Shown: positions 23,913 through 64,000 of the stretch, piece after piece | Layout: each line of letters opens with the position of its first letter | How positions within the stretch are numbered: position 1 is the stretch's first letter | Position numbers and translations under genes: made by a program | Source: Candidatus Magasanikbacteria bacterium GW2011_GWC2_37_14 | GTDB lineage: Bacteria; Patescibacteriota; Patescibacteriia; Magasanikbacterales; UBA922 | DNA length: 64,000 nucleotides | Direction of reading: 5' to 3' | NCBI GenBank assembly: GCA_000990355.1 | Contig: LBSX01000008.1 | Location: forward strand, 40,316 to 104,315 | The notes under the pieces: generated by a model | Told to the model about the DNA's origin: nothing | The model's database searches: none | The model's input: the letters and a program-made list of their open reading frames with translations, nothing else

Positions 23913-24431
23913 ATGATTAAATTAATGAAAGCTTTAAATAATAAATTAGTAGTATTAGCTGTAGTAACTTTGGCTTTTGGTTTATTGCTTTTGCCAGGTT
24001 TAGCTTATGCAGAGATTGATGCTGCCTGTGCCGATGATACTGAATGTGACGCGGGTGAAATTTGTGGAGTAGATGAAACTTGCGTGGCCGACCCTTCTAC
24101 CTCAGGTTCAGACGCCAAAGACCCATTTGGAATAAATTATGGTGCTAAAACTGGTTTAGGTTCCAGAGATATTCGCGATACCATTGGTAGCATTATTAAT
24201 GTAGCTTTGGGTTTACTCGGCATTGTGGCCGTAGTAATCGTCTTGGCTGGTGGTTTTAAATGGATGACCTCTGGTGGTAATGAAGAAAAATCTACCGAAG
24301 CTCGCAAATTGATTTTTGCTGGTATTATTGGTTTGGCAATTATTTTGTCTGCCTATGCAATTTCTAGATTTGTCTTAACACAATTGTATACCGCAACAAG
24401 TACAAGTGGTACAGCTACCTATGGAGTATAA
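23913..24431 (+). CDS. TrbC/VirB2-like pilin-family protein; paralog 4
   Basis: Signal peptide, a short Cys/acidic segment, then IRDTIGSIINVALGLLGIVAVVIVLAGGFKWMTSGGNEEKSTEARKLIFAGIIGLAIILSAYAISRFV. Confidence 0.6.
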   Translation: MIKLMKALNNKLVVLAVVTLAFGLLLLPGLAYAEIDAACADDTECDAGEICGVDETCVADPSTSGSDAKDPFGINYGAKTGLGSRDIRDTIGSIINVALGLLGIVAVVIVLAGGFKWMTSGGNEEKSTEARKLIFAGIIGLAIILSAYAISRFVLTQLYTATSTSGTATYGV

Positions 24432-24559
24432 GTAGCATTTACATAGTCTCTTAAGTTAGGAGAAAATATAATGTTAACAAAAGGAATTATTACCCCCGAC
24501 AGATTGTCGGGGGTAATAATGGCCTTGATTGTAGGTTGTTATTTGTTATCAAGCTGTCA

Positions 24560-24645
24560 TTCCTTAGCGTCATTCCCGCGCAGGCGGGAATCTTACACTA
24601 GTTAAAAAGATTCCCGCCTGCGCGGGAATGACGCACGAAGAAAGG
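24560..24645. repeat. Family B palindromic repeat pair (GTCATTCCCGCGCAGGCGGGAAT ... ATTCCCGCCTGCGCGGGAATGACGC)
   Basis: Two inverted copies. Relatives occur at 4930, 8566, 11905, 52068 and 62226. Confidence 0.8.
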
Positions 24646-24693
24646 TGGCAATGACAAATTGATACTGAGTAATAAATTACAATAATTATATAT

Positions 24694-25095
24694 ATGAAAA
24701 AAGCATTTTTATTTTTAAGTCTAATGTTTGTTTTGTTATTTGGATTTTTTTGCACTTTTAAACCAGTTTTGGCACAAGGTCCTTATTTAGGTTTGGAATA
24801 TGGAGCCGACACTGGACTTTCTACCAAAGACATTCGTTTTACTACCGCCAGAATTATCAATACGGTGCTTGGCCTTTTGGGCATGGTTTCGGTAGTAATT
24901 ATTATTTATGCTGGTTTTAAATGGATGACTGCCGGTGGTAATGAAGAAAATGCCACTTCGGCCAGAAAAATTTTATTTTCGGCAGTAATCGGTTTGGTAA
25001 TAATTCTTAGTGCTTATTCTATTGCTCGTTATGTAAATACTAGTTTATACAAAGCGACTACTGGCTATGACTATGAGTCAATGATTATTGAATAG
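24694..25095 (+). CDS. TrbC/VirB2-like pilin-family protein; paralog 5
   Basis: IRFTTARIINTVLGLLGMVSVVIIIYAGFKWMTAGGNEENATSARKILFSAVIGLVIILSAYSIARYV. Confidence 0.6.
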   Translation: MKKAFLFLSLMFVLLFGFFCTFKPVLAQGPYLGLEYGADTGLSTKDIRFTTARIINTVLGLLGMVSVVIIIYAGFKWMTAGGNEENATSARKILFSAVIGLVIILSAYSIARYVNTSLYKATTGYDYESMIIE

Positions 25096-25100
25096 TATAT

Positions 25101-25622
25101 ATGAAAAAAATATTATTTTTATTAGTTGGTTTGGTAATAGTTTTTTCTCCAGTTTTGGCAATGGCGGAAGATTCTTATGGTTTGGAAACAACGGCTGGAG
25201 CTGCCAAATTAAAAAGTGATAAAGATTTGCCCACTTTGGTTGGTAATGTGGCTGGTACTGCACTTTCTTTGGTAGGTGTAATATTTTTTGCTTTAATGAT
25301 TTATGCTGGTTTTTTGTGGATGACTGCCCAAGGTAAAGAAGAACAAGCCAAAAAAGCTTTGGACACAATTATTGCCTGTATTATTGGTTTAATAATCATT
25401 TTGGCCGCTTATGCGATTACTAGATTTATTTTTAATAGTGCGGGGGTGGGAGGAAGTGGTACAGTGCCTCAAGAAAAACAGTGTGATGCTACATCTGTTG
25501 CTTCGTGTAAATCTAAACCTGAGAGTACTACAGCTTGTACTGAAACAGCAGGTGGGGTAACTACTAATGGGTTTTGTCATTTTGTAAACCCACAGTCAAA
25601 GAGTTGTAGTTGTGGAAATTAG
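25101..25622 (+). CDS. TrbC/VirB2-like pilin-family protein with a C-terminal Cys-rich tail; paralog 6
   Basis: Conserved domain LVGNVAGTALSLVGVIFFALMIYAGFLWMTAQGKEEQAKKALDTIIACIIGLIIILAAYAITRFI, then a 9-Cys tail. Confidence 0.6.
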   Translation: MKKILFLLVGLVIVFSPVLAMAEDSYGLETTAGAAKLKSDKDLPTLVGNVAGTALSLVGVIFFALMIYAGFLWMTAQGKEEQAKKALDTIIACIIGLIIILAAYAITRFIFNSAGVGGSGTVPQEKQCDATSVASCKSKPESTTACTETAGGVTTNGFCHFVNPQSKSCSCGN

Positions 25623-25632
25623 AATATTTATT

Positions 25633-26340
25633 ATGTTTTTTGGTTATAAAAAAATAATTTTAATTTTAGCAGTATTTTTGAATATATTTTTTTTTGGAAA
25701 CCAAGCTTTGGCAGCTTACACTTTTGATGACACTGGCCTGATGCTTGGTAAAGCCGCGGAGCCAACAGGAATGTTGGATACCAAAGTCACTGGGTCTTTG
25801 CCAGTAGTTTTGGGTTTTTGGGCCACAGTAGCATTTTCATTAGTAAGCATTGTCTTTTTTATTTTAATGTTTTATGCTGGTTTTTTGTGGATGACAGCGC
25901 GTGGTTCGGAAGAAGTGGTAACCAAAGCCAAGGGCATAATTACTATGGCCATAATTGGTTTGTTTGTACTCGTAGCCTCGTATGCAATTACCACCTTTAT
26001 TACTAGCAGTTTAGTTCCTGGTGTGGCTGGTAATAAAGCCGCTGGTACTGGTAATTTGGAAGTTGGGCCAAATAATCCCGAAGGTTGTTGTGTGGATTGG
26101 GTAGCCACCGATAGTCAGTGGTTTGGCGCAGTTGGTACCTTAAAAAAAGATAATGACGGTGGTTTTGTGGGAGTAAGTGCTTGCCGGATAACTACAAAGT
26201 CTGATTGTGAATTACAAGGTACAACAGAAACGGAAAGTGATGTGTTGGCTGGCCCCGAAGGTGTTGGTTATTGGGTATTTGATGAAGCTATAAAAGAAAA
26301 AGAGGCTTGTCAAAGTGCTTATTGTAAATTAGCAAATTAA
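25633..26340 (+). CDS. TrbC/VirB2-like pilin-family protein with a C-terminal Cys-rich domain; paralog 7
   Basis: Start moved to the ATG at 25633 because the track start is a GTG. Conserved domain, then a roughly 110-aa tail with 7 Cys. Confidence 0.55.
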   Translation: MFFGYKKIILILAVFLNIFFFGNQALAAYTFDDTGLMLGKAAEPTGMLDTKVTGSLPVVLGFWATVAFSLVSIVFFILMFYAGFLWMTARGSEEVVTKAKGIITMAIIGLFVLVASYAITTFITSSLVPGVAGNKAAGTGNLEVGPNNPEGCCVDWVATDSQWFGAVGTLKKDNDGGFVGVSACRITTKSDCELQGTTETESDVLAGPEGVGYWVFDEAIKEKEACQSAYCKLAN

Positions 26341-26349
26341 TAAAAAATT

Positions 26350-26715
26350 ATGAAAAAAATATTTATAACTCTGGCATTATTTACAATTTTGTTAACACCA
26401 GTTTTTGTTTTTTCTGCCAATACTGGTTTGGGTGCCTTAACAAAAAATTTAAGTGATACTGGCAAAGCCGCAGAAATAAGTGAAACTGGTACTTTGCAAG
26501 ATATTGTTGGTACAGGAATTGGAGCGGCCCTTACTTTGGTTGGATTAATTTTTATGATTTTAATGGTTTATGGTGGATATTTGTGGATGGTTGCGAGAGG
26601 TGCCGAAGAAATGATCACCAAGGCCAAGGGAATTATTACTGCTGCGATTATCGGTTTGGTAGTAGTAATTAGCGCCTATGCCATAACAGTATTTATTACA
26701 GGTAGGTTTCAGTAA
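26350..26715 (+). CDS. TrbC/VirB2-like pilin-family protein; paralog 8 (minimal form)
   Basis: Signal peptide plus a short linker plus the conserved domain only (121 aa). Confidence 0.6.
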   Translation: MKKIFITLALFTILLTPVFVFSANTGLGALTKNLSDTGKAAEISETGTLQDIVGTGIGAALTLVGLIFMILMVYGGYLWMVARGAEEMITKAKGIITAAIIGLVVVISAYAITVFITGRFQ

Positions 26716-26735
26716 TTAGTTTTATTTTAAATGAT

Positions 26736-27122
26736 ATGAATATAAAGAAAATAATTTTAATAGCCATCTTTAGTTTATTATTGTGTACCCCAGTATTGGC
26801 GAAATTAAATTTGGGCACAGGAATTGCTGGGCAGGCGGCGGTAAAAGCTGGTTATGAAGGAAATACTAGTGAAATAACTTTTTCGCAAAATATTGGTACA
26901 GTAATTAATGCCGCACTTTCGCTAGTGGGTGTAATATTTTTGGTTTTAATGGTTTATGCGGGATATTTGTGGATGACAGCACGTGGTTCGGAAGAAGAAA
27001 TTACCAAAGCCAAAGGAATTATTATTGCGGCCATGATTGGTTTAATTTTGGTGGTAGGTGCTTATAGTATTACTACTTTTGTGGTACCACGTATTTTGGC
27101 TAGTGGCGTCAAAACTCCCTAA
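26736..27122 (+). CDS. TrbC/VirB2-like pilin-family protein; paralog 9
   Basis: IGTVINAALSLVGVIFLVLMVYAGYLWMTARGSEEEITKAKGIIIAAMIGLILVVGAYSITTFV. About 75% identical to paralog 7 within this domain. Confidence 0.6.
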   Translation: MNIKKIILIAIFSLLLCTPVLAKLNLGTGIAGQAAVKAGYEGNTSEITFSQNIGTVINAALSLVGVIFLVLMVYAGYLWMTARGSEEEITKAKGIIIAAMIGLILVVGAYSITTFVVPRILASGVKTP

Positions 27123-27123
27123 T

Positions 27124-27531
27124 ATGAAAAAAATTGTTTTGTTAATAATTTTATTTGTTAGTCTAGGGTTATTCCCTTTGGCCTTGCAGGCTCAAGTAAA
27201 TAAAACTACGGGTGAAAAAATTATGGGGCAAGTAGGTGCTAGTGCCGAAAAGGCCGAAATTGGGGCGCCAGCAGATTTTAGAGTAGTTGTTACCAGAACC
27301 ATAAAAACTCTTCTTGAGACAGTTGGTGCAGTATTTATTATTTTAATAGTTTATGGCGGTTATACTTTTATTACTGCTGAGGGCGAAGAAGAAAAAGTAA
27401 CCAAAGGTTTAAATATAATCAAGCCAGCAATTATTGGTTTAATAATCATTTTGGCGGCTTATGGTATTACTTTGTATGTGGGCATACGGTTTACCCAAGC
27501 AGTAACTGAAGGGGCCACAATAATGCGTTAA
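27124..27531 (+). CDS. TrbC/VirB2-like pilin-family protein; paralog 10
   Basis: Start moved to the ATG at 27124 (MKKIVLLIIL). Conserved domain is present. Confidence 0.55.
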   Translation: MKKIVLLIILFVSLGLFPLALQAQVNKTTGEKIMGQVGASAEKAEIGAPADFRVVVTRTIKTLLETVGAVFIILIVYGGYTFITAEGEEEKVTKGLNIIKPAIIGLIIILAAYGITLYVGIRFTQAVTEGATIMR

Positions 27532-27536
27532 AATTT

Positions 27537-28046
27537 ATGAAAAAGTTCTTATATCTTATTTTGCTAGCCGTTTTTTTAAGTGGTTTATTTACTTTTGTCC
27601 AAGTTAAGGCAGCTGATTATCGTGCTGATACCATGAATCAACTTTCCGCTACCGCTGGTGCCAATGGAGCCAACTATGGCACAGCGCGTGATCCACGAGC
27701 AATTGTGGCCCAAGTAATAAAAATTTTTTTGGGTACAGTAGGAATATTGTTTGTGGCTTACACGGTTTATGCTGGGTTTATAATACTAACTTCTGGTGGT
27801 AATGAAGAAAAAGTTGGAAAAGCCAAAAAAATGATTTTTTATGCGACCATAGGTATTATAATTACTCTCTCTGCTTATGGGATAGTTTTGTTTGTACAAA
27901 GATATTTTGTAGGAGATACTGGCGGTTTAAATGGCAGTGCTAGTTATGGGCCGTGGTATGTAGAAGGAAGTTTAAACGTGGATGAGAGTAATAGTCAATT
28001 TTATTCTCCAGATCCCTTGGAACAAGATACACTTATTTATCACTAA
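27537..28046 (+). CDS. TrbC/VirB2-like pilin-family protein; paralog 11
   Basis: VAQVIKIFLGTVGILFVAYTVYAGFIILTSGGNEEKVGKAKKMIFYATIGIIITLSAYGIVLFV, followed by a terminator hairpin (catccgcctcatcggcggatg plus T-run). Confidence 0.6.
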   Translation: MKKFLYLILLAVFLSGLFTFVQVKAADYRADTMNQLSATAGANGANYGTARDPRAIVAQVIKIFLGTVGILFVAYTVYAGFIILTSGGNEEKVGKAKKMIFYATIGIIITLSAYGIVLFVQRYFVGDTGGLNGSASYGPWYVEGSLNVDESNSQFYSPDPLEQDTLIYH

Positions 28047-36716: not shown

Positions 36717-38945
36717 ATGGAAAACAAAAGTTGGTCGCTCAATTGGGGCGGCAGAGAACTTACCGTAGAGGTAGGTAAATTAGCATTGTTAACTAATGGG
36801 TCTTGTACTGTGCGCTATGGCGACACGGTAGTTTTGGCCACAGTGGTAAAAAGTAAAAAGGAAAAAGATGCAGATTATTTTCCACTATCTGTGGAATTTG
36901 AAGAAAAATTGTATGCCGCTGGCAAAATAAAAGGCAGTCGGTTTATTAAAAAAGAAGGTCGACCATCCGACGCAGCAATTTTGTCTGGTCGTTTAATTGA
37001 TCGCGCCATTCGTCCTCTTTTTGATGATCGGGTAAGAAATGAAGTTCAAGTAGTAGTAACTCCTTTGTCTGTAGATCAAGAAAATGATGCTGCCATTACC
37101 GCTTTTATTGCGGCCTCGGTAGTTGTTTCTATTTCCAATATTCCTTGGAATGGTCCGGTAGCAGCTGCCAGAATTGGTAGAGTAAATGGTGAATTAATTT
37201 TGAATGTTACTGGCAGTCAATTGGAAAGTGCAGAAAATGATTTGAATTTGGTAGTGGCTGGTACTCCAGAAAAATTGATTATGGTAGAAGCTGGCGCCAA
37301 AGAAGTGAGTGAAAAGGATATGCTTGAAGCTATGCAATGGGGTTTAAAACAATTACAACCAGTGATTGAATTTATTAATAAAATTAAAAAAGAAATTGGT
37401 TTGCCAAAAGATGTAACCCCAGAAAAAATTGCTTCGGTCGAAGAAGCTGGTGATGATATTAAAGAAAAAGTAAAACAATTAGTAAGAAAATTTGTTTTGG
37501 ATAATAGTGAAAAAATGGTTTTTGATAAAGCCAAAATTTCTCGTACCGAAAGAATTGAAATGTTGAATAATCTTGAAACTAGTGCTAAAGAATTTTTAGT
37601 GGCTCAAGGTGTTGTTGAAGAAGACATGTTGTCTGGTTTACAAAATATAAAACTTTATGTAGAAGAAGTAATTACCAAAAAGATTTTGGACAAAGAACAA
37701 AGATTGGATGGACGCAAATTAGATGAGGTCCGGGCTTTGAGCACCGAAGTTGATTTGTTGCCACGTGTGCATGGTTCGGCACTTTTTCAACGCGGTGATA
37801 CTCAAGTATTATCAATTGTTACTCTTGGTGCTCCTGGAGATAAACAAACTTTGGATGGTATGGAAGAAGATGGCACCAAACGTTATATGCACCATTACAA
37901 TGATGCTCCATACACTTATGGAGAAACTGGCCGTGTAGGTGGACCAGGACGTCGGGCTATTGGTCATGGAGCTTTGGCCGAACGGGCACTAGAACCAGTA
38001 TTACCAGCCGAAACTGATTTCCCTTATACTATTCGTGTTGTTTCCGAAGTGTTGGGTTCTAATGGTTCTTCTTCAATGGCCTCTACCTGTGGTTCCACAA
38101 TGTCCCTGATGGCAGCCGGAGTACCAATTAAAAAACCAGTAGTGGGTGTAGCCATGGGTTTGGCTTCCGAAAGTGATGAAAATGGCAAAATAAAACGTTT
38201 TAAAGTTTTAACTGATTTGCAAGATGTAGAAGATGGTCCTGGGGGAATGGATTTTAAAATTACTGGAACTGCCGACGGTATTACTGCTATGCAAATGGAT
38301 ACCAAGACTACTGGTTTAACTTGGGAGATTGTGGAAAAAACAATTAAACAAAATAAAGAAGCCCGCGAAGTGATTATGAAAAAAGTAGTAGAAGCAATTG
38401 CTACTCCTCGTGCCGAACTTTCTCCTTATGCACCTCGGATTGAAACAATCCAGATTAATCCAGAAAAAATTGGTGATCTTATTGGTCCTGGCGGTAAAAC
38501 AATCAAGAAAATTACCGAGGAAACTGGTGTATCAATTGATATTGAACAAGACGGTCGCGTATTAATTACTTCGGTAGATGCCGAAGCCATGAAAAAGGCT
38601 ATCCAATATGTAAAAGATTTAACTCACGAAGTAACTGCTGGTGAAACTTATGATGGTACAGTGGTACGTTTGGAAGATTTTGGGGCTTTTATAAATATTT
38701 TGCCTAGTCAAGATGGTTTGGTACACGTATCGGAAATTTCTTGGAACCGTGTTGGCAAGCCTAGTGATGTCTTGAAAATTGGCGATAAAGTAAAAGTATT
38801 GGTAAAAGAAATTGATAATCTAGGTAGAACTAATTTATCAATTAAAGCCTTAATTGCCAAACCCGAAGGTTATGTGGCTCCTGCACCATTTGTGCGCGAC
38901 AACGGTGGTCAAAAAAGAGGTGGGTTTGTAAAGCGAGATCACTAA
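36717..38945 (+). CDS. pnp: Polyribonucleotide nucleotidyltransferase (PNPase)
   Basis: Two RNase PH domains, a KH domain (GPGGKTIKKITEETG) and an S1 domain, over 742 aa. Confidence 0.95.
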   Translation: MENKSWSLNWGGRELTVEVGKLALLTNGSCTVRYGDTVVLATVVKSKKEKDADYFPLSVEFEEKLYAAGKIKGSRFIKKEGRPSDAAILSGRLIDRAIRPLFDDRVRNEVQVVVTPLSVDQENDAAITAFIAASVVVSISNIPWNGPVAAARIGRVNGELILNVTGSQLESAENDLNLVVAGTPEKLIMVEAGAKEVSEKDMLEAMQWGLKQLQPVIEFINKIKKEIGLPKDVTPEKIASVEEAGDDIKEKVKQLVRKFVLDNSEKMVFDKAKISRTERIEMLNNLETSAKEFLVAQGVVEEDMLSGLQNIKLYVEEVITKKILDKEQRLDGRKLDEVRALSTEVDLLPRVHGSALFQRGDTQVLSIVTLGAPGDKQTLDGMEEDGTKRYMHHYNDAPYTYGETGRVGGPGRRAIGHGALAERALEPVLPAETDFPYTIRVVSEVLGSNGSSSMASTCGSTMSLMAAGVPIKKPVVGVAMGLASESDENGKIKRFKVLTDLQDVEDGPGGMDFKITGTADGITAMQMDTKTTGLTWEIVEKTIKQNKEAREVIMKKVVEAIATPRAELSPYAPRIETIQINPEKIGDLIGPGGKTIKKITEETGVSIDIEQDGRVLITSVDAEAMKKAIQYVKDLTHEVTAGETYDGTVVRLEDFGAFINILPSQDGLVHVSEISWNRVGKPSDVLKIGDKVKVLVKEIDNLGRTNLSIKALIAKPEGYVAPAPFVRDNGGQKRGGFVKRDH

Positions 38946-38961
38946 TTAGTTTGTATAAAGT

Positions 38962-38993
38962 AAAAGAATCCCCCCCTAAGGGATTCTTTTTTT
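38962..38993. terminator. Terminator hairpin after pnp (aaaagaatccccccctaagggattcttttttt)
   Basis: Perfect stem plus T-run. Confidence 0.7.
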
Positions 38994-39153
38994 ATCCACA
39001 GTATTGTTTGACACTAATTATTTATCTGGTAAACTAAAATTAGTATGAATAAAATTTTCTTAACTACAACCACTACTACAATCTTTTTCTCTTATTGAGG
39101 TAGTGTTTATTTTTTAAGAAAAGATAATAATCCTCAAGAAGAGGATTTTTTTT

Positions 39154-39909
39154 ATGAATAATAAAATTGATAAAATATATTTTGATTTTGATAGCACCCT
39201 AATTAAGGCGGAAAGCTTGGATTTGTTGGGAATAAGGCGAGGGGTAGGAAAAAATGTTTCTGCTATGACAAAACGTTCAATGAACGGCGAAGTGGCATTC
39301 TCTGATATTTTTTTAGAAAAAATGCAATTAATTTCTCCGACAAAAAATGATCTCGATGTTGTAGCACAAGAGTGTGTTGGTTTGTTGGTAGCTGGTGTGC
39401 TGGAAACAATGAAATTATTGCGTGCTTTGGATAAGCAGGTATATATTCTGTCAGCTAATTTTTATCCAATGATTTTGCCGGTGGCGAAAAAACTTGGGTT
39501 AGACGAGAATAACATTATTGCCAATGAGATATTTTTTGATGGGGATGAAAATTTTTTGAATTTTAATACTAGTTCGTTGTTGGCTCAGGATTATGGCAAA
39601 GCAAGAGTGTTACAGCAAGAAAAACAAAAAGGTGGAAGATTAGCATTGGTAGGAGATAGTGTAGCCGACTTGGAGGCAGCAAGTGAGGTGGATGTTTTTG
39701 TTGGTTTTGGTGGAGTTGTACAACGAGAAAAAGTATTTAAGGAGTCAAAACATTTTGTTTCCTCACCATCATTATTGCCATCTTTAAATTTCTTGTTATC
39801 GGATGATGAGATAAATAAATTGAAAATTATTGGTTTTGAAAAAATAGTAAATGAAATTCAAAAATTGACTACCATTACTACAACCGGGACAGGGCCGGTT
39901 GCTTGGTAG
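39154..39909 (+). CDS. HAD-superfamily hydrolase (phosphoserine phosphatase-like)
   Basis: Motif I FDFDSTL and motif IV GDSVADLEA. The C-terminal tail runs into the GC-rich block. Confidence 0.7.
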   Translation: MNNKIDKIYFDFDSTLIKAESLDLLGIRRGVGKNVSAMTKRSMNGEVAFSDIFLEKMQLISPTKNDLDVVAQECVGLLVAGVLETMKLLRALDKQVYILSANFYPMILPVAKKLGLDENNIIANEIFFDGDENFLNFNTSSLLAQDYGKARVLQQEKQKGGRLALVGDSVADLEAASEVDVFVGFGGVVQREKVFKESKHFVSSPSLLPSLNFLLSDDEINKLKIIGFEKIVNEIQKLTTITTTGTGPVAW

Positions 39910-39983
39910 TGGTATTAGTTTTTGAACAAAATACTCGCCAAGGCTGGCGGGTATTTTTGTTTAAAAAAGCGGGAGGAGGAAAT

Positions 39984-41297
39984 ATGCGAGAGGGTGCGTT
40001 GCTTTTGCCTGAGTTTAGTTCGTTGTATCGATTTCGTGAGCCAGACGTGAGGCAGTATCAACAGCAGAAGGGAGTGGAACAGATCAAGCAGGAGAATGAT
40101 CTGTTTACAGACCCAATTAATGGATGTGATTGTGTCTTTACCTCTCACCGAATTGGAACAGTGCTTGTGGCGCCACGATCTCAGTGTTTGACGCGTTTTC
40201 CTGGGCACAGCTTGCCTGGTCCTGGTGGTAATTGCCAGATTAACACCGGAGCTTTGGAGTGGAATCGTTTTCAGGAACTCGCCAAATTCGCAGGGATTCC
40301 AGTGCTCGGAGATTGTCAGTTGGTATCGACGGTAGCAGAGCCGAAATTGCCGTCGTGGGATTGGTTGGGTGTGGCTGAGCCGGATATATTTGTCTTGAGT
40401 CCCATCATTGTCCAAACGTTGCCGTGGGGTGAGGCTGAATGGCAGATGTATGTTGAAGGGTTGCGACATAGTCTGCGTCAGGTGCACAATTGTAGCATGG
40501 CGAAGATTCTGTCGTTGGCACGCCAGGCTTGGGACCAACACGGTAAAATGATCTATGACAGCGATGCACTCCTGTGGGCAGAGAAAATTATGTGCGTCGT
40601 GGGCAAAGAGAATTGTGATTTGAATGCGATTTTCGAGTTGGAAGCGGCGGTTAGCTGTCGACAGTACTCTCGCGATCTCCGTATTCATAGTCGGGGTGTT
40701 TACCGCGGCATGTGGATCGAGGTTGGAGAAGTTGGACTCGCTTCCATCAAGGCAACGGAGTTGGTTATGCCAGTGCGTATTATTCAAGAGCTCCAGAGTC
40801 TGTACAAGAACGGTTTTGCTCCCATCGTGGTGAATGAGTATGGGTGCAATACGGATGGTAGTCATCGTCATACGACTGCCTGGCTCTGGAATTTGCTCAA
40901 GGCTATTGGATCGTTCAATTCGGGAGTGCTCCAATCGCGTGTCACCGAATTCGTCGTGAAGCATTGTCTGGCCATGGGTCCGATCATCACCCGTGAAGTA
41001 TTGCGTGTGTTGTCCGAATTGTTGGCTAATCACCGCCAACTCTTGTTCGAAGAAATCATGCCACAAGTGCAGAGATATAATCCGATTGCTACTTTGCCGG
41101 TCATACTGCTCAATGAGTATTCGGCTGGCACGGTTGTGAAGAAGGAATATGATGAAGGCACGGCAGTGCGGCGTGTTGATCCTGAGACGTATCGGTTGCT
41201 TGCCAATAACCCTTCCTTCACCCTTCCGGCACGTGGTCCCTATCACCGTACGGACCGATCGATCCTTCCCTGGTTTCAAATTCTGGAAAAGGAGTAG
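39984..41297 (+). CDS. Unknown 437-aa protein encoded on a GC-rich (about 52%) island with atypical codon usage
   Basis: Strong RBS GGAGGAGG-4-ATG. The plus-strand translation is complex and protein-like, with conserved Cys/His clusters (CDC, NEYGCNTDGSHRH). The equal-length minus-strand ORF is low-complexity R/S-rich and judged to be a shadow. Confidence 0.55.
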   Translation: MREGALLLPEFSSLYRFREPDVRQYQQQKGVEQIKQENDLFTDPINGCDCVFTSHRIGTVLVAPRSQCLTRFPGHSLPGPGGNCQINTGALEWNRFQELAKFAGIPVLGDCQLVSTVAEPKLPSWDWLGVAEPDIFVLSPIIVQTLPWGEAEWQMYVEGLRHSLRQVHNCSMAKILSLARQAWDQHGKMIYDSDALLWAEKIMCVVGKENCDLNAIFELEAAVSCRQYSRDLRIHSRGVYRGMWIEVGEVGLASIKATELVMPVRIIQELQSLYKNGFAPIVVNEYGCNTDGSHRHTTAWLWNLLKAIGSFNSGVLQSRVTEFVVKHCLAMGPIITREVLRVLSELLANHRQLLFEEIMPQVQRYNPIATLPVILLNEYSAGTVVKKEYDEGTAVRRVDPETYRLLANNPSFTLPARGPYHRTDRSILPWFQILEKE

Positions 41298-41481
41298 GTG
41301 TTCTTTCTTGGCCTGTCCCTCGGCTATTCAATAGAGGTGATAGTGAGCCGGCATTTTCTCCGGCAATTCACTTTGTCGACAAACAAAACTAAATAACTAC
41401 TGTTTTATTGCAGTAGTTTTTAGTTGACCTTTTCGATTATTTGTAGTTTAATATTGGTATTCACATAATGCTTATGTGTTC

Positions 41482-42144
41482 ATGAAACCTTTAAATAAAG
41501 TTAAAATAGAATGGTCGCCAAAATTTGCGTATGCTATTGGTTTGATAGTGACTGATGGAAATTTATCTGGTGATGGAAGACATATTTCTTTCACTTCAAA
41601 AGACTATGATTTAGCATTTTTATACAAGGAATGTCTTGAATTAGATAATATTGTTGGTAAAAAATCTAGAGTGGCCGGTGCAGAAAAAATATACAGTATA
41701 GTTCAGTTTGGCGATGTAAGTTTTTATAAATTTTTATTGTCCATCGGGTTAACACCAAACAAATCAAAAACTATTGGCAAACTTAAAGTACCAAGAAAAT
41801 ATTTTTATCACTTTTTGCGTGGTTGTTTTGATGGAGATGGTAATATAAATGAGTTTAAACATCGAGAAAGTCAACACACACAGTTAAGAGTTAGATTTTT
41901 TTCTGCAAGTAAGAAGTTTGTTGATTGGCTAAGGGGAAATACTATTAAAAATGGGATAAAAGGCTATTATGGAAGTGTAGGGAAAAAGAAAAGTGTTTAT
42001 GTTTTGGAATTTGCTAAAGCCGATTCAATAAAGTTATTAAACTTGATTTATAAAGAAAATTGTGGTATCTTCTTAGAAAGAAAGTATTTAGTAGCTAAAA
42101 AATATTTGCTGGCGTGGCGGAATTGGTATACGCGCTTGCCTTAG
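41482..42144 (+). CDS. LAGLIDADG-family homing endonuclease (two-motif, monomeric type)
   Basis: Motif 1 FAYAIGLIVTDGNLS and motif 2 FLRGCFDGDGNIN. Start taken as the ATG at 41482. The 3' end overlaps tRNA-Leu by 37 nt. Confidence 0.8.
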   Translation: MKPLNKVKIEWSPKFAYAIGLIVTDGNLSGDGRHISFTSKDYDLAFLYKECLELDNIVGKKSRVAGAEKIYSIVQFGDVSFYKFLLSIGLTPNKSKTIGKLKVPRKYFYHFLRGCFDGDGNINEFKHRESQHTQLRVRFFSASKKFVDWLRGNTIKNGIKGYYGSVGKKKSVYVLEFAKADSIKLLNLIYKENCGIFLERKYLVAKKYLLAWRNWYTRLP

Positions 42145-42191
42145 AAGCATGTTCCCGAAAGGGATTGAGAGTTCGAGTCTCTCCGCCAGCA
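42108..42191 (+). tRNA. tRNA-Leu (anticodon TAG), class II with a long variable arm
   Basis: Hand-folded: acceptor GCTGGCG/CGCCAGC, D-loop with GG, anticodon loop CTTAGAA, variable arm CCC-GAAA-GGG, T-arm GAGAG-TTCGAGT-CTCTC, discriminator A. Confidence 0.75.
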
Positions 42192-42194
42192 CAC

Positions 42195-42461
42195 ATGAAT
42201 AACTTAGAAGCTAAAATCTTTGCCGCTGAATTGGGTGCAGAAATGCCCGAATTAGATTTACATGGATTTTATCCAAATGAAGCCCTAGAAAAACTAGAGG
42301 TTTTTTTATTTAAAAACTCGCAAAATAAGGAGCAGATGGTTAGAGTAATTTATGGCTTTGGCACGGGAAAATTGGCTAATGAAGTTTTGAATTATTTAAA
42401 AAAACACACGTTGGTTGAAGCTGTTATAGAAAAAGAAGGAAGTTGTATTGTAGTTCTTTAA
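42195..42461 (+). CDS. Smr-domain protein (small MutS-related nicking endonuclease domain)
   Basis: LDLHG ... VIYGFGTGKL Smr motifs. Start set to the ATG at 42195, right after the tRNA. Confidence 0.7.
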   Translation: MNNLEAKIFAAELGAEMPELDLHGFYPNEALEKLEVFLFKNSQNKEQMVRVIYGFGTGKLANEVLNYLKKHTLVEAVIEKEGSCIVVL

Positions 42462-47962: not shown

Positions 47963-48409
47963 TGTCAGGCATTCATAAATGAATTGCACCACGTCCGCAT
48001 ACGTTTGGACCTCTGGGTATAACAATAAAGTTAAACGACAATGTTTACTTACATAAAATTATACTTAGATTAACCAGGCGTGGCAATTGACTTTTCTGTT
48101 AAATTGATCGCTTGAAGGCGATCTTTTTTTCCACGAAAAGTGGCGTAATGAAATAAGCCACTTGGAGTAGGAACCGCGTGATGAGCAAAGCGAATTTTAC
48201 GCGGTAAACACGGTGCCACATCGTGGCAGGCTCTCAGATCACAGACAGCGTAGATAAAAATCTAAATTGTCTGTGGCAAGAGATTTAGGGATAGAACTTT
48301 GACAATTCAAATTAAAAATATTAAATAGGTCAATTCAAAAATAAGCGGTCTTATTAAAGATTTAATAAGATAAAAAGAAAGCACAATTGTGTGTTTTCGT
48401 AGTATGCAT

Positions 48410-51690
<3,281 letters not shown>

Positions 51691-51748: not shown

Positions 51749-51858
51749 GTCTAGGTGTCATGAGCGAGAGGGTCACACCCGATCCCATCCCGAACTCGGC
51801 AGTTAAGCCTCTCAGCGTCGATGATAGCGGCAACGCAAAAGTAGACCGACGCCTGGAC
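51749..51858 (+). rRNA. rrf: 5S ribosomal RNA
   Basis: Helix I GTCTAGGTG/CGCCTGGAC closes. Internal CCCGAACTCGGCAGTTAAGC and GTAGACCGACGCC blocks match 5S. Confidence 0.8.
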
Positions 51859-62665: not shown

Positions 62666-62820
62666 TTATTTTCAACTATTTACAAAATAATTTTATAAAC
62701 ACTTGAGTCACCCTTGGTCCTCCAAGGCCAAGGTGCTCCTTCTTGTGAAAGGAAAAGATCGATAAAGAATGTGGGTTTTTTGCCCCGGAGCTGGGGCGGG
62801 TGGTGGGGTGGGGTAGCAGT

Positions 62821-63879
62821 TTAGCGGGGCTCCGGCGTGGTGGGGATGTCGCCACCGCTGAAGAACTTGTTCGGGTCGGCGAGCATCGCCTGGGTCGGTG
62901 GCGTTGTGGGGTGAAGTTCGTACTCCACCACGACCTCATTGCCGACGCGTTTCCAGGTGATGTGTCTCTTGTCCAGGACGTGGTTCACGGCGAAGGGGAA
63001 CTTCGGGTTCATCCACACCATCACCTCGTCGCCCTCCTTGAGCTGCTCGCCCCGTTCGCCCGGCTTGTGGATGTAGACGACTGTCGACATGCTCGGCATG
63101 TTCACCACGGCCACCAGGCGTTCCGTGCTCTCGATGGTGCGGGCCTGGAGCTTGATGAAGCACCAGCCCGCGTCTTCCATGCGACGGCGGAGGGACATGT
63201 ACCAGCTCACCTGGTGGACGTTCGACGGCCACTCCACGAAGTCGTTCTGGAGCGGCAACATCTCGAATTTCGGCGGGAACCGGTAGGGCTCTCCACCCAG
63301 CATGGCCCAGCGCAGGGCGCAGGGTATGGTGAGCGGGTAGTTCCTGGACCAGAGGTGCCGTCGGAAGCATTCCTTCTTGCTTCCGTCGCCGTCGGCCAGA
63401 CCCTTGAGTCCCTGGACGATCAGGGGGATCGTCCGCCAGGTGGGCACGAGGCGGAGCGAGAGCCCCACCTGAAGGCTCTGGGGCAGGTTGAGACGACGGA
63501 GAACTTCGATCGTTTGCGAGTTGACGACGCTCTCCAACCGATCCACCGCCCGGATGGCGATCGGCCAGGCATCGTGGTTGCCCAGCGAGGCGCGGATGTG
63601 CTCATAGATGATGAGCACCTTCTCGGGCTGTACCGAGGCGATCTCGAGGAGCATGTGCACCAGGTCGGAAAAACCGAATTTGGCCCAGGCCAGCGCGTTT
63701 TCCAGGAAGGCGCGCTGGAACTCGCGGCAGCAGGGCTCGTCGCCGAGACACGCCCTTCTGATCGTTTCGTCGTTCGCACCCGCTTCGATCAGCCAGCTGA
63801 AGACCTGGTGGATGTCCATCCCTTCTTCGGTCTCGAGCTTGGCCCACATCTCGCGCAGGAGCTCGGGCTGGATGGCCAT
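62821..63879 (-). CDS. Unknown 352-aa protein on a high-GC (about 62%) island
   Basis: RBS GAGGAGG-5-ATG on the minus strand. The translation is complex and W/R-rich. All plus-strand ORFs in this block are Arg/His/Gly-rich antisense shadows. Confidence 0.55.
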   Translation of the reverse strand: MAIQPELLREMWAKLETEEGMDIHQVFSWLIEAGANDETIRRACLGDEPCCREFQRAFLENALAWAKFGFSDLVHMLLEIASVQPEKVLIIYEHIRASLGNHDAWPIAIRAVDRLESVVNSQTIEVLRRLNLPQSLQVGLSLRLVPTWRTIPLIVQGLKGLADGDGSKKECFRRHLWSRNYPLTIPCALRWAMLGGEPYRFPPKFEMLPLQNDFVEWPSNVHQVSWYMSLRRRMEDAGWCFIKLQARTIESTERLVAVVNMPSMSTVVYIHKPGERGEQLKEGDEVMVWMNPKFPFAVNHVLDKRHITWKRVGNEVVVEYELHPTTPPTQAMLADPNKFFSGGDIPTTPEPR

Positions 63880-64000
63880 GTTGGCCTCCTCTCAGCAACC
63901 AAGGGCTTCTGTTCCCAGGGTTGCAAAGCAAAAATTGAGCAGTCGGACACCCTTGTGCCAACCGCAGGTTCTTTAACTAAACGTTATTTTCGCAAATAAC

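Follow-up and report, generated by a model that had tools for sequence, protein, structure and literature searches.

SerK and SbnI are serine kinases built on the ParB fold (PMC5120207; PMC12704722), and a remote SbnI-like family, DUF1015 or 'SerBK', is described as replacing SerB genetically (bioRxiv 10.1101/2024.10.14.618325). ThrH is a HAD enzyme resembling phosphoserine phosphatase (PSP) that moves phosphate from phosphoserine to homoserine and can replace ThrB (bioRxiv 10.1101/2024.10.14.618325; PMC10714395); citing papers credit this transfer activity to Singh et al. 2004. Here we describe a gene, called X below, in a 64,000-nucleotide (nt) stretch of DNA from Candidatus Magasanikbacteria bacterium GW2011_GWC2_37_14 (contig LBSX01000008.1, positions 40,316 to 104,315); this whole stretch is the window, and coordinates refer to it unless a locus is named. 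An earlier, sequence-only reading of the window had taken X for an orphan Cys/His-containing protein on a GC-rich foreign island. We propose instead that X and the HAD gene directly upstream form an operon attenuated by threonine (Thr), in which X is kinase-like and the pair raises the threonine supply. Taken as a whole, we give this explanation a probability of about 0.5.

The operon contains the following genes and signals:

39154-39909, plus strand: HAD-IB phosphatase resembling PSP, KKQ27572.1 (Pfam HAD), upstream of X at 20/20 loci, with a C-terminal tail ending in QKLTTITTTGTGPVAW and the stop codon
39972-39979, plus strand: ribosome-binding site of X, GGAGGAGG, read from the sequence, 4-12 nt 5' of ATG 39984
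39984-41297, plus strand: gene X, 437 aa, uncharacterised family, KKQ27573.1
41347-41418, plus strand: operon-end terminator hairpins, comprising a GC hairpin (41347-41364) and a bidirectional hairpin (41395-41418)

We consider it very likely that X is a real gene in a conserved HAD-X operon and not a recent island. Its product is identical to KKQ27573.1 ('hypothetical protein US42_C0008G0084' of the same organism), and the identical protein is found on 6 contigs from several sources. The deposited start gives a protein of 462 aa whose extra residues are a translation of the intergenic hairpin; because homologue alignments begin at ATG 39984 instead, the 437-aa start is better supported, and the strong ribosome-binding site and start codon named in the sequence-only reading both stand. 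Homologues are full-length, with 22-83% identity. They fall into 24 clusters in a search of 5.8 billion proteins, and an exhaustive HMMER search of 1.84 billion proteins gave 98 representatives at 50% identity and reached nothing outside the family. There are 8 matches among 185,579 species genomes. With numbers this small, the idea that X might be a common core gene in the candidate phyla radiation (CPR) does not hold. The dN/dS ratio against an orthologue of 83% identity is 0.13, and the GC content of the three codon positions is 0.57 / 0.40 / 0.54, compared with a third-position GC (GC3) of 0.25 in the adjoining genes.

The HAD gene is the constant partner of X. In all 20 distinct loci that include DNA upstream of X, the gene directly upstream is an HAD-IB orthologue on the same strand, separated from X by 17-168 nt; every other neighbour varies between these loci. 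Nearest neighbours of X and of HAD are concordant in every shallow clade. A mirror-tree (Mantel-type) correlation of X and HAD distances gave a Pearson coefficient of 0.84 but a Spearman coefficient of 0.12, with deep distances saturated, so that the signal comes from close pairs only; we therefore relied on the nearest-neighbour comparison. The pairing is also old. One 3,782-bp alignment of 77.7% identity joins window 37647-41407 to the L001 contig, which comes from another sample; it runs through pnp (encoding PNPase), HAD, X and 110 nt of 3' flank, and further upstream rpsO and an NYN gene are collinear as well. Because this independent assembly is collinear, both borders of the GC-rich block are confirmed, and the chimera that the sequence-only reading had allowed for at its two junctions is excluded; X is also older than the split of the two lineages (dS 0.4-0.7).

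KKQ27572.1 is annotated as 'phosphoserine phosphatase', and the HAD partners score above the cut-off of TIGR01488 (HAD-IB). They reach 95-105 bits against the NCBIfam SerB equivalog (cut-off 144) and 16-22 bits against the ThrH equivalog NF010109 (cut-off 133); KKQ27572.1 itself scores 95 and 22 bits, respectively. The best matches of KKQ27572.1 are SerB and human PSPH, with which it aligns nearly end to end (E-value 4e-29). The motifs DxDST, GK, GDxxxD and S.MT..M.G are conserved in 13/13 X-linked HADs, together with a cap residue equivalent to human E29. In contrast, all 13 have Lys where human PSP uses R65, an Arg, to bind the substrate carboxylate. The partner is thus PSP-like yet systematically non-canonical, and from the alignment this invariant Lys is a candidate specificity determinant of X-linked HADs. 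At one locus (L005, 479-1222) the HAD contains one in-frame stop and is called as two ORFs (open reading frames), yet aligns over its full length; this stop could be a sequencing error, a pseudogene or recoding.

The connection to threonine comes from the RNA. Upstream of HAD we find:

39008-39035, plus strand: sigma-70-like promoter, TTGACA, 16 nt, TG-TAAACT (consensus scan; 10/12 matches, extended -10 TG)
39045-39098, plus strand: leader-peptide ORF, MNKIFLTTTTTTIFFSY and stop, with six consecutive Thr codons at 39063-39080; present in 19/20 loci
39092-39100, plus strand: 5' strand of the anti-terminator (region 2), TTATTGAGG, containing the leader stop TGA (39096-39098) and pairing with CCTCAA at 39132-39137
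39129-39153, plus strand: intrinsic leader terminator, AATCCTC-AAGAA-GAGGATT and T-run, found by a terminator scan and abutting the HAD start codon

The promoter ends about 10 nt before the leader ATG, and by eye a TTGAC. / TA...T pair occupies the same position in other loci. In all loci inspected, the leader ORF (at 39045 in the window) starts ~9-12 nt past the -10 box; on this short distance the leader peptide would be made from an almost leaderless mRNA, with no Shine-Dalgarno sequence. Thr-rich leader ORFs of 12-19 codons, 3-7 of them for Thr, are present at 19/20 distinct loci and in both sub-clades, always in the same order: promoter, leader ORF, a segment with the leader stop, and a GC hairpin with T-run that abuts the HAD start. 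Within the 64-kb window this is the only Thr-rich short ORF with a terminator behind it.

Both structures of the leader covary across 19 sequences. In the terminator, 84.5% of cells are paired, compared with 33-50% when the partner is slid out of register, compensatory changes occur in 8/10 pairs, and 0/500 shuffles do as well. In the anti-terminator, 79.5% of cells are paired (26-57% when slid); 6 pairs and 21 cells have changed on both sides, and 0/500 shuffles match on three measures. Examples of the pairing between the leader-stop segment and the terminator's 5' arm and loop are TTGAGG/CCTCAA, CCGAGG/CCTCGG, ATTCGAGG/CCTCGAAT and CGAGGGCC/GGCCCTCG. In 19/19 leaders the stop codon is found 0 to +12 nt from where the anti-terminator strand begins, and the Thr run ends 2-20 nt 5' of region 2. 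The 3' arm of the terminator contains GAGGA, the ribosome-binding site of HAD. Judged from its sequence, the region is built as a ribosome-mediated attenuator reading Thr codons would be, and we think it likely that it senses threonine; the Rfam model Thr_leader (RF00506) scores 13.4 bits at 39043-39153, where its gathering score is 55. At L018, the sole locus without a leader, HAD lies ~25 nt behind a gene fragment of 302 aa that encodes threonine-tRNA ligase (thrS; NF003068, E-value 5e-75). This neighbour is an independent link to threonine.

In the clade of the window, a similar arrangement recurs between the two genes:

39868-39962, plus strand: attenuator-like element between HAD and X, found in 12 distinct loci ('group A')
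39868-39885, plus strand: Thr/Ile codon run in the HAD tail, ending in LTTITTTGTGPVAW and the stop codon
39902-39916, plus strand: conserved region 2, TTGGTAGTGGTA, with the HAD stop TAG (39907-39909) inside
39930-39944 and 39945-39955, plus strand: regions 3 and 4, with a T-run to 39962

The hairpin and T-run (39930-39962) lie ~20 nt before the ribosome-binding site of X. A 12-mer in region 2 is found once per locus, solely at the HAD-X junction; it contains or follows the HAD stop and is conserved whatever its reading frame. The terminator has 82.8% of its cells paired; compensation is seen in 7 pairs and 20 cells, a level reached by 0/500 shuffles. The anti-terminator, formed by region 2 and the 5' arm of the terminator, has 78.4% of cells paired, compared with 33-45% when slid, and is matched by 2-9/500 shuffles; its Fisher p of ~4e-7 comes from nine related lineages and is indicative only. 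Its duplex energies range from -9.9 to -20.6 kcal/mol, and in the window the 1:2, 2:3 and 3:4 pairings have energies of -20.6, -12.3 and -15.2 kcal/mol. The pairing of the Thr run with the 12-mer is energetically strong, yet covariation cannot tell it from chance. Thr_leader scores 20.5 bits at 39866-39961 against the gathering score of 55, and no recurrent Rfam family was found at the HAD-X junctions of 10 other loci. For a second, intercistronic attenuator in this clade we see the odds as even. To our knowledge, there is no precedent for the C-terminal tail of an enzyme serving as an attenuator leader peptide.

Loci with long HAD-X spacers carry an additional conserved, structured segment, located past the second terminator and before the ribosome-binding site of X (L018 1737-1830, L019 1042-1138, L021 1060-1172, L023 2404-2500 and L025 1011-1125). 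It consists of GTGCTGATGATTG ... AATCACCAGCAC, which form a long hairpin, followed by GCACGAAATAGGTCGTGC. The window has no such segment, which could be a third regulatory element.

What kind of protein is X? Pfam, NCBIfam, PADLOC and PHROGs contain no family for X or for alignments of 14-73 members, and searches of PDB sequences with three X profiles (A2, A3 and A4) returned no match, so the earlier failure to place the protein in a family was well founded. Structure and motif order are more informative. Residues ~235-437 (nt ~40686-41294) adopt a ParB/Srx-like fold (Srx, sulfiredoxin), with a strand carrying I.ATE259L, a helix, a strand carrying PIVVNE, and then D291-G-S-H-R295. The best structural matches are two kinases, SerK and SbnI, over 123-128 residues, compared with 79-92 residues for Srx or ParB; like these kinases, X has a helical domain attached to the ParB/Srx-type fold. 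Two conserved segments stand out in the C-terminal half:

40758-40868, plus strand: predicted catalytic core, E259 (40758-40760) and D291-G292-S-H294-R295 (40854-40868), within GFAPIVVNEYGCNTDGSHR, from a 73-sequence alignment
41223-41258, plus strand: C-terminal motif LPARGPYHRTDR with invariant H421 (41244-41246) and D424 (41253-41255), from homologue alignments

Only G74, E259, D291, G292, H294, R295, H421 and D424 are invariant over 73 sequences of the X family, and the invariance of the core residues holds down to 22% identity. Of the two clusters that had looked conserved in the sequence-only reading, NEYGCNTDGSHRH turned out to be the most conserved motif of the family, and 'CDC' is not conserved. 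From their order, E259 and D291-R295 would correspond to the acidic residue and the nucleotide-phosphate motif of SerK/SbnI. X is probably a ParB/Srx-fold nucleotide-binding enzyme.

Residues 1-232 have no assignable fold; modelled alone, they reach a predicted local distance difference test (pLDDT) score of 66.5 and give no fold match. This suggests that the N-terminal half packs onto the C-terminal half and is not an independent domain. Its conserved residues are Y25, K29, R56, F72-P-G74, W183 and E218.

From a real gene in a conserved, syntenic operon, its fold and invariant residues, and the covariation of its RNA, we infer the direction of regulation, the kinase activity and the substrate. 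In order, this conserved and vertically maintained operon would comprise a promoter, the Thr leader with its terminator and anti-terminator, HAD-IB, the second Thr element (in one clade) and X. When tRNA-Thr is well charged, the ribosome would reach the leader stop inside the anti-terminator strand and mask this strand, so that the terminator forms and transcription ends before HAD. When charged tRNA-Thr is scarce, the ribosome would stall at the Thr run, allowing the anti-terminator to form and HAD to be transcribed. In the clade of the window, the same logic would apply at the 3' end of HAD, with the poly-Thr tail of the enzyme as the sensor for read-through into X.

The C-terminal half of X would be a nucleotide-binding domain of the free-serine-kinase type, which binds a nucleotide and phosphorylates a small hydroxy-amino acid; X and HAD would then form a phosphoryl-transfer pair acting on such a substrate to provide more threonine. 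Tentatively, and at somewhat less than even odds, X may be a hydroxy-amino-acid kinase that serves threonine synthesis. In the version that we favour, for which ThrH is the precedent, X would phosphorylate serine (or homoserine directly) and the PSP/ThrH-like HAD would hand the phosphate to homoserine, yielding O-phosphohomoserine for threonine synthase. As a transferase, HAD would not create the futile cycle expected of a plain kinase and phosphatase pair. This specific serine-carrier mechanism, in which X makes phosphoserine and HAD passes its phosphate to homoserine, is an unlikely guess on our analysis. Similarly speculative is the full picture for CPR/Patescibacteria, in which threonine starvation would induce a two-enzyme bypass of homoserine kinase, with serine as the catalytic phosphate carrier, two attenuators in series and the HAD tail as the second sensing peptide.

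Codon usage offers one further idea. In the clade of the window, ACG makes up none of the Thr codons in the Thr run and 37-58% of those in X (X versus host, p = 2e-7); across 11 lineages there is a trend only (19% versus 31%, p = 0.07). A weak idea is that codons are chosen to be robust to starvation, the sensor using the major Thr codons and X the rare ACG, and the GC-rich, host-rare codons of X could be an adaptation for translation under starvation.

Several observations weigh against this explanation. About half of X (residues 1-232) is without an assigned fold or role, and at the level of sequence X has no homology to any kinase. The HAD partner is far below the ThrH cut-off (22 versus 133 bits) and also, on the same profile scores, below that of SerB. 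Unless HAD is a transferase, pairing a kinase with a phosphatase for the same substrate would amount to a futile cycle. No thrC, hom or asd adjoins the operon in any locus inspected, and amino-acid pathways are generally few in CPR bacteria. In the other clade of loci ('group B') the second attenuator is missing, and covariation gives no support to the 1:2 helix of either attenuator, which cannot be distinguished from chance since ACN repeats can pair in several registers. Finally, the GC excess of X is left unexplained by the operon model.

The alternative that survives best, although we find it doubtful, is that X is not a kinase: its ParB/Srx half would be a nucleotide-binding switch, a scaffold or another enzyme (e.g. 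a nucleotidyltransferase or NTPase) that aids or regulates HAD, still under Thr control. The ParB-CTPase fold serves as switch, enzyme or scaffold and takes CTP, ATP or GTP as its ligand; which of these applies is not predictable from sequence (PMC12704722). This flexibility, together with the large unassigned N-terminal half and the lack of sequence-level membership in SerK/SbnI, leaves room for such a role; X profiles did not retrieve SerK or SbnI from PDB sequences even at E-values up to 10, and on sequence the C-terminal half is not a member of any known family. In contrast, the two kinases are its best structural matches, well ahead of Srx and ParB in aligned length, and an invariant acidic residue with DGxHR suits a catalytic site. 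Pfam detects no helix-turn-helix (HTH) or other DNA-binding domain in X, and the isolated C-terminal domain does not match PF02195 (ParBc) at E-values up to 10; the sole ParB-type signal in Pfam is ddrB-ParB, with an E-value of 0.21 in 1/73 members.

It is considerably less likely that the Thr runs are not sensors, but a fortuitous short ORF and a low-complexity HAD tail next to ordinary terminators or mRNA-stability hairpins. The missing covariation of the 1:2 helix, Thr_leader scores of just 13-20 bits, the restriction of the second element to one clade and its modest single-sequence shuffle p-values all fit this account. However, Thr-rich leaders are present at 19/20 loci, spread over the two clades and in every case with their stop within or next to the anti-terminator strand, and the anti-terminator covaries with the very terminator arm for which it competes. 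The 12-mer is conserved independently of reading frame, the leader is the sole such short ORF in 64 kb, and the one leaderless locus sits behind thrS. We therefore retain Thr-sensing attenuation.

The foreign island of the sequence-only reading, in which an orphan Cys/His protein would have landed at a hotspot flanked by an unrelated HAD gene and by the LAGLIDADG/tRNA-Leu group, is improbable and, as a recent event, largely refuted. Its basis was a sharp step in composition, which is real: in 300-nt windows, GC is 0.45-0.52 over ~39,900-41,400 and 0.29-0.39 in the flanks. The figures given earlier for the outlier, ~52% in a ~34% genome, were slightly off; GC is 0.503 in ORF 39984-41297, 0.376 in the 64-kb window and 0.367 in host coding DNA. 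GC3 of X is 0.54, compared with a mean of 0.275 (sd 0.055) in 55 other ORFs of the window (z = 4.8). About one third of the GC excess in the window comes from amino-acid composition (X is rich in R, P, W, Q, H and C and poor in K, I and N) and two thirds from codon choice; with host codon preferences the expected GC would be 0.412 instead of the observed 0.503.

This contrast belongs to the family. Of the first 13 hosts compared, 10 show a GC of X above the local background, and most later loci do too, L023 being an exception; GC of X is 0.50-0.57 in hosts of 0.37-0.48 and 0.62-0.72 in hosts of 0.52-0.68. GC3 of X follows that of the host (r = 0.79) and lies above it (Wilcoxon p = 6e-4), while GC3 of HAD is host-like or lower. 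An operon partner of host-like composition, together with an offset of X in most hosts, makes repeated recent import hard to support. The GC excess of X is a long-standing trait of the gene family and not a mark of recent import. Thus, of the features expected of a recent island, X has the atypical composition, but relatives do not lack it at this site, since L001 is collinear, and its neighbour HAD does not share its composition, as co-transferred genes would.

Other observations can be set on the side of an island. Synteny with the relative breaks ~110 nt past X, beside a tRNA and an ORF for a homing endonuclease; members of the family are rare and patchily distributed; and an older transfer, of X alone and from a lineage richer in GC, is conceivable, the deep phylogeny being unresolved. 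In contrast, HAD and X are paired in 20/20 loci and linked by regulatory RNA elements, and PNPase-HAD-X is collinear in a relative at dS 0.4-0.7. Around X, neither an integrase nor a phage match came from Pfam, PHROGs or phage tblastn (no search for border repeats was made), and tblastn of X against 50,697 phage records gave no match, so that a phage origin is rejected. Nor is a landing site at the HAD border supported: HAD is the obligate operon partner, and variable DNA starts only past X.

The second sign of foreignness had been the open frames on both strands. These are present: the plus frame spans 39903-41297 (464 aa from TTG; 437 aa from ATG 39984) and the minus frame is

39915-41279, minus strand: antisense shadow ORF, 454 aa, not conserved and without a Pfam match

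As a hallmark of foreign DNA they are not supported, however. The two frames share the same triplet register, and the antisense ORF is open only because the sense frame of X has zero TTA, CTA or TCA codons, which would be stops on the in-phase antisense strand. X homologues have 2-7 such codons each, and their longest antisense open stretch is 161-320 aa. We rule out an antisense gene, as the full-length frame is absent from homologues and has no Pfam match. More generally, a sharp GC step and ORFs open on both strands are insufficient proof of recent horizontal transfer.

We give very little weight to a toxin/antidote or defence module, in which X would be a small-molecule kinase toxin and HAD the phosphatase that reverses its product. 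The patchy distribution and variable flanks would suit such a module, as would the intercistronic terminator, which is expected to yield the upstream product in excess over the downstream one. A PemK gene (L002 9546-9941) or a Fic gene (L024 1630-2688) lies immediately downstream of X in two loci, probably by coincidence, and one preprint reports a ParB-fold ATPase toxin (bioRxiv 10.64898/2026.05.05.722872). However, there are no PADLOC or PHROG matches and no phage homologues, attenuation by an amino-acid-specific leader and the thrS linkage favour metabolism, and the locus is stable and syntenic beside pnp.

An artefact, whether a chimera of the assembly or an ORF call on what is really a GC-rich, structured non-coding RNA, can be dismissed: a GC-rich segment of an AT-rich genome is often a structured RNA and both strands are open here, but an independent assembly from another sample is collinear over both junctions, 6 contigs of several origins carry the identical protein, codon-position GC and a dN/dS of 0.13 are coding-like, Rfam (at gathering and E-value thresholds) finds no family within the GC-rich block, and the folding z of X mRNA against synonymous-codon shuffles is -0.9, like control genes (-1.7 to +0.7), which rules out a structured RNA.

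In the rest of the window, similarity to L001 stops at ~41,407, just 5' of the LAGLIDADG/tRNA-Leu group, so it is this group, and not X, that is the variable DNA. The LAGLIDADG_3 ORF is free-standing (41476-42144) and runs into the tRNA-Leu gene (anticodon TAG; 42108-42192). With its listed coordinates (42114-42461) the Smr ORF overlaps this tRNA, and its real start is therefore probably downstream. The 23S rRNA match at 48400-51687 spans 3,288 nt, longer than the model of 2,925 nt, which indicates ~360 nt of insertion(s); the 5S gene lies past it at 51751-51857, and there is no 16S gene within the window. A stronger GC-rich block at 62,700-64,000 (0.60-0.67 in a 0.37 genome) is cut by the end of the window and holds a plus-strand ORF at 62800-63999 (399 aa) and a minus-strand ORF at 62821-63879 (352 aa). 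The plus-strand ORF has no Pfam match and finds only an identical copy, and no homologues, among 5.8 billion proteins; the block is unrelated to X. Tandem short paralogous genes at ~24,100-27,900, and at 1-3,600 in L001 (where they match T4SS_pilin, PF18895), give many cross-matches between and within the genomes.

The named sources of X are Magasanikbacteria, Paceibacterota, Parcubacteria and metagenome-assembled genomes of the 'Patescibacteria group'. The operon is also found in assemblies auto-labelled 'uncultured Gammaproteobacteria' (L008, L011, L014 and L015, all GTDB species representatives); given that L008 has 78% DNA identity to the window and CPR-like genes, this label is apparently a placeholder or an error. 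One 2.7-kb contig with X is binned as Syntrophomonadaceae, and at some GC-richer loci, L004 among them, the neighbours do not look clearly CPR-like; the distribution is therefore more safely called 'mostly CPR' than 'CPR only'.

This unannotated family gains a testable functional handle: its fold suggests a kinase, its partner enzyme phospho-amino acids and its regulatory RNA threonine. The usual description of CPR bacteria is that they lack most amino-acid biosynthesis; a conserved sensor of tRNA-Thr charging, if true, would mean that some of them actively manage their threonine supply. A leader formed by the HAD tail, if true, would be a new variety of attenuation that extends the known attenuator repertoire, and X widens the enzymatic (non-ParB) branch of the ParB-CTPase fold. 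The gene thrB is a frequent pathway gap (bioRxiv 10.1101/2024.10.14.618325; PMC10714395), and of the unexplained gaps in the amino-acid pathways of prokaryotes, thrB and serB belong to the four that are most common (GapMind 2026 preprint); a ParB-fold enzyme under Thr control would thus be a concrete candidate to fill such a gap.

The components of this system are each of a known kind: ParB/Srx-fold enzymes, HAD-IB phosphatases and leader-peptide attenuators. In the literature that we searched, neither the X family and its obligate pairing with a PSP-like HAD, nor Thr attenuation in CPR-type genomes or an enzyme's C-terminal tail as a second leader, is described, and there is no report of classical ribosome-mediated attenuation in CPR bacteria. 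Compared with its closest counterparts, SerK (Thermococcus kodakarensis TK0378, PDB 5x0b) and SbnI (Staphylococcus, PDB 5ujd), X has no detectable sequence similarity and is ~190 residues longer, with an unassigned N-terminal half that does not fold alone; it also has an extra invariant H..D motif at the C-terminus. The catalytic acidic residue of SerK is E30 (E30A and E30Q structures are deposited); compared by order alone, E259 and D291-G-x-H-R295 of X follow one another as expected. The gene context differs as well, X lying with HAD-IB and a Thr attenuator, SerK and SbnI with cysteine or siderophore genes.

DUF1015/SerBK (PF06245) is likewise ~400 aa, is reported to be a remote structural relative of SbnI and is tied to serine/phosphoserine metabolism. 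Compared by Pfam profile only, PF06245 gives sub-threshold matches in 4/73 X sequences (E-values of at least 0.007) and none in the window protein and 69/73. DUF1015 is found with serA/serC, whereas X is found with HAD-IB and a Thr leader, with no serA or serC adjoining X in any locus. Sulfiredoxin is more distant: it is a single domain of ~110 aa with a catalytic Cys in F-G-G-C-H-R, where X, with 437 aa, has D-G-(S/T/N)-H-R, and human Srx (its sequence verified against PDB 1yzs) reaches an hhalign probability of 0.2% with X. ParB has an HTH, a dimerisation domain and a parA partner; X is without all three and has no match to Pfam ParBc.

ThrH of Pseudomonas aeruginosa is, like the partner of X, a PSP-like HAD-IB protein of the same superfamily and subfamily. 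The partner of X is nearer to eukaryote-type PSP than to ThrH, and an invariant Lys replaces the substrate-binding Arg of PSP. Unlike for the HAD of the HAD-X operon, no pairing with a ParB-fold protein is known for ThrH. Finally, the HAD-X leader resembles that of the thr operon (RF00506) in its run of Thr (and Ile) codons, its terminator, its mutually exclusive anti-terminator and its stop in region 2. It differs in scoring far below the Rfam threshold, in occurring in CPR-type genomes on an almost leaderless mRNA, in preceding HAD-X instead of thrABC and, in one clade, in having a second copy for which the C-terminal tail of a full-length enzyme would serve as the 'leader peptide'.

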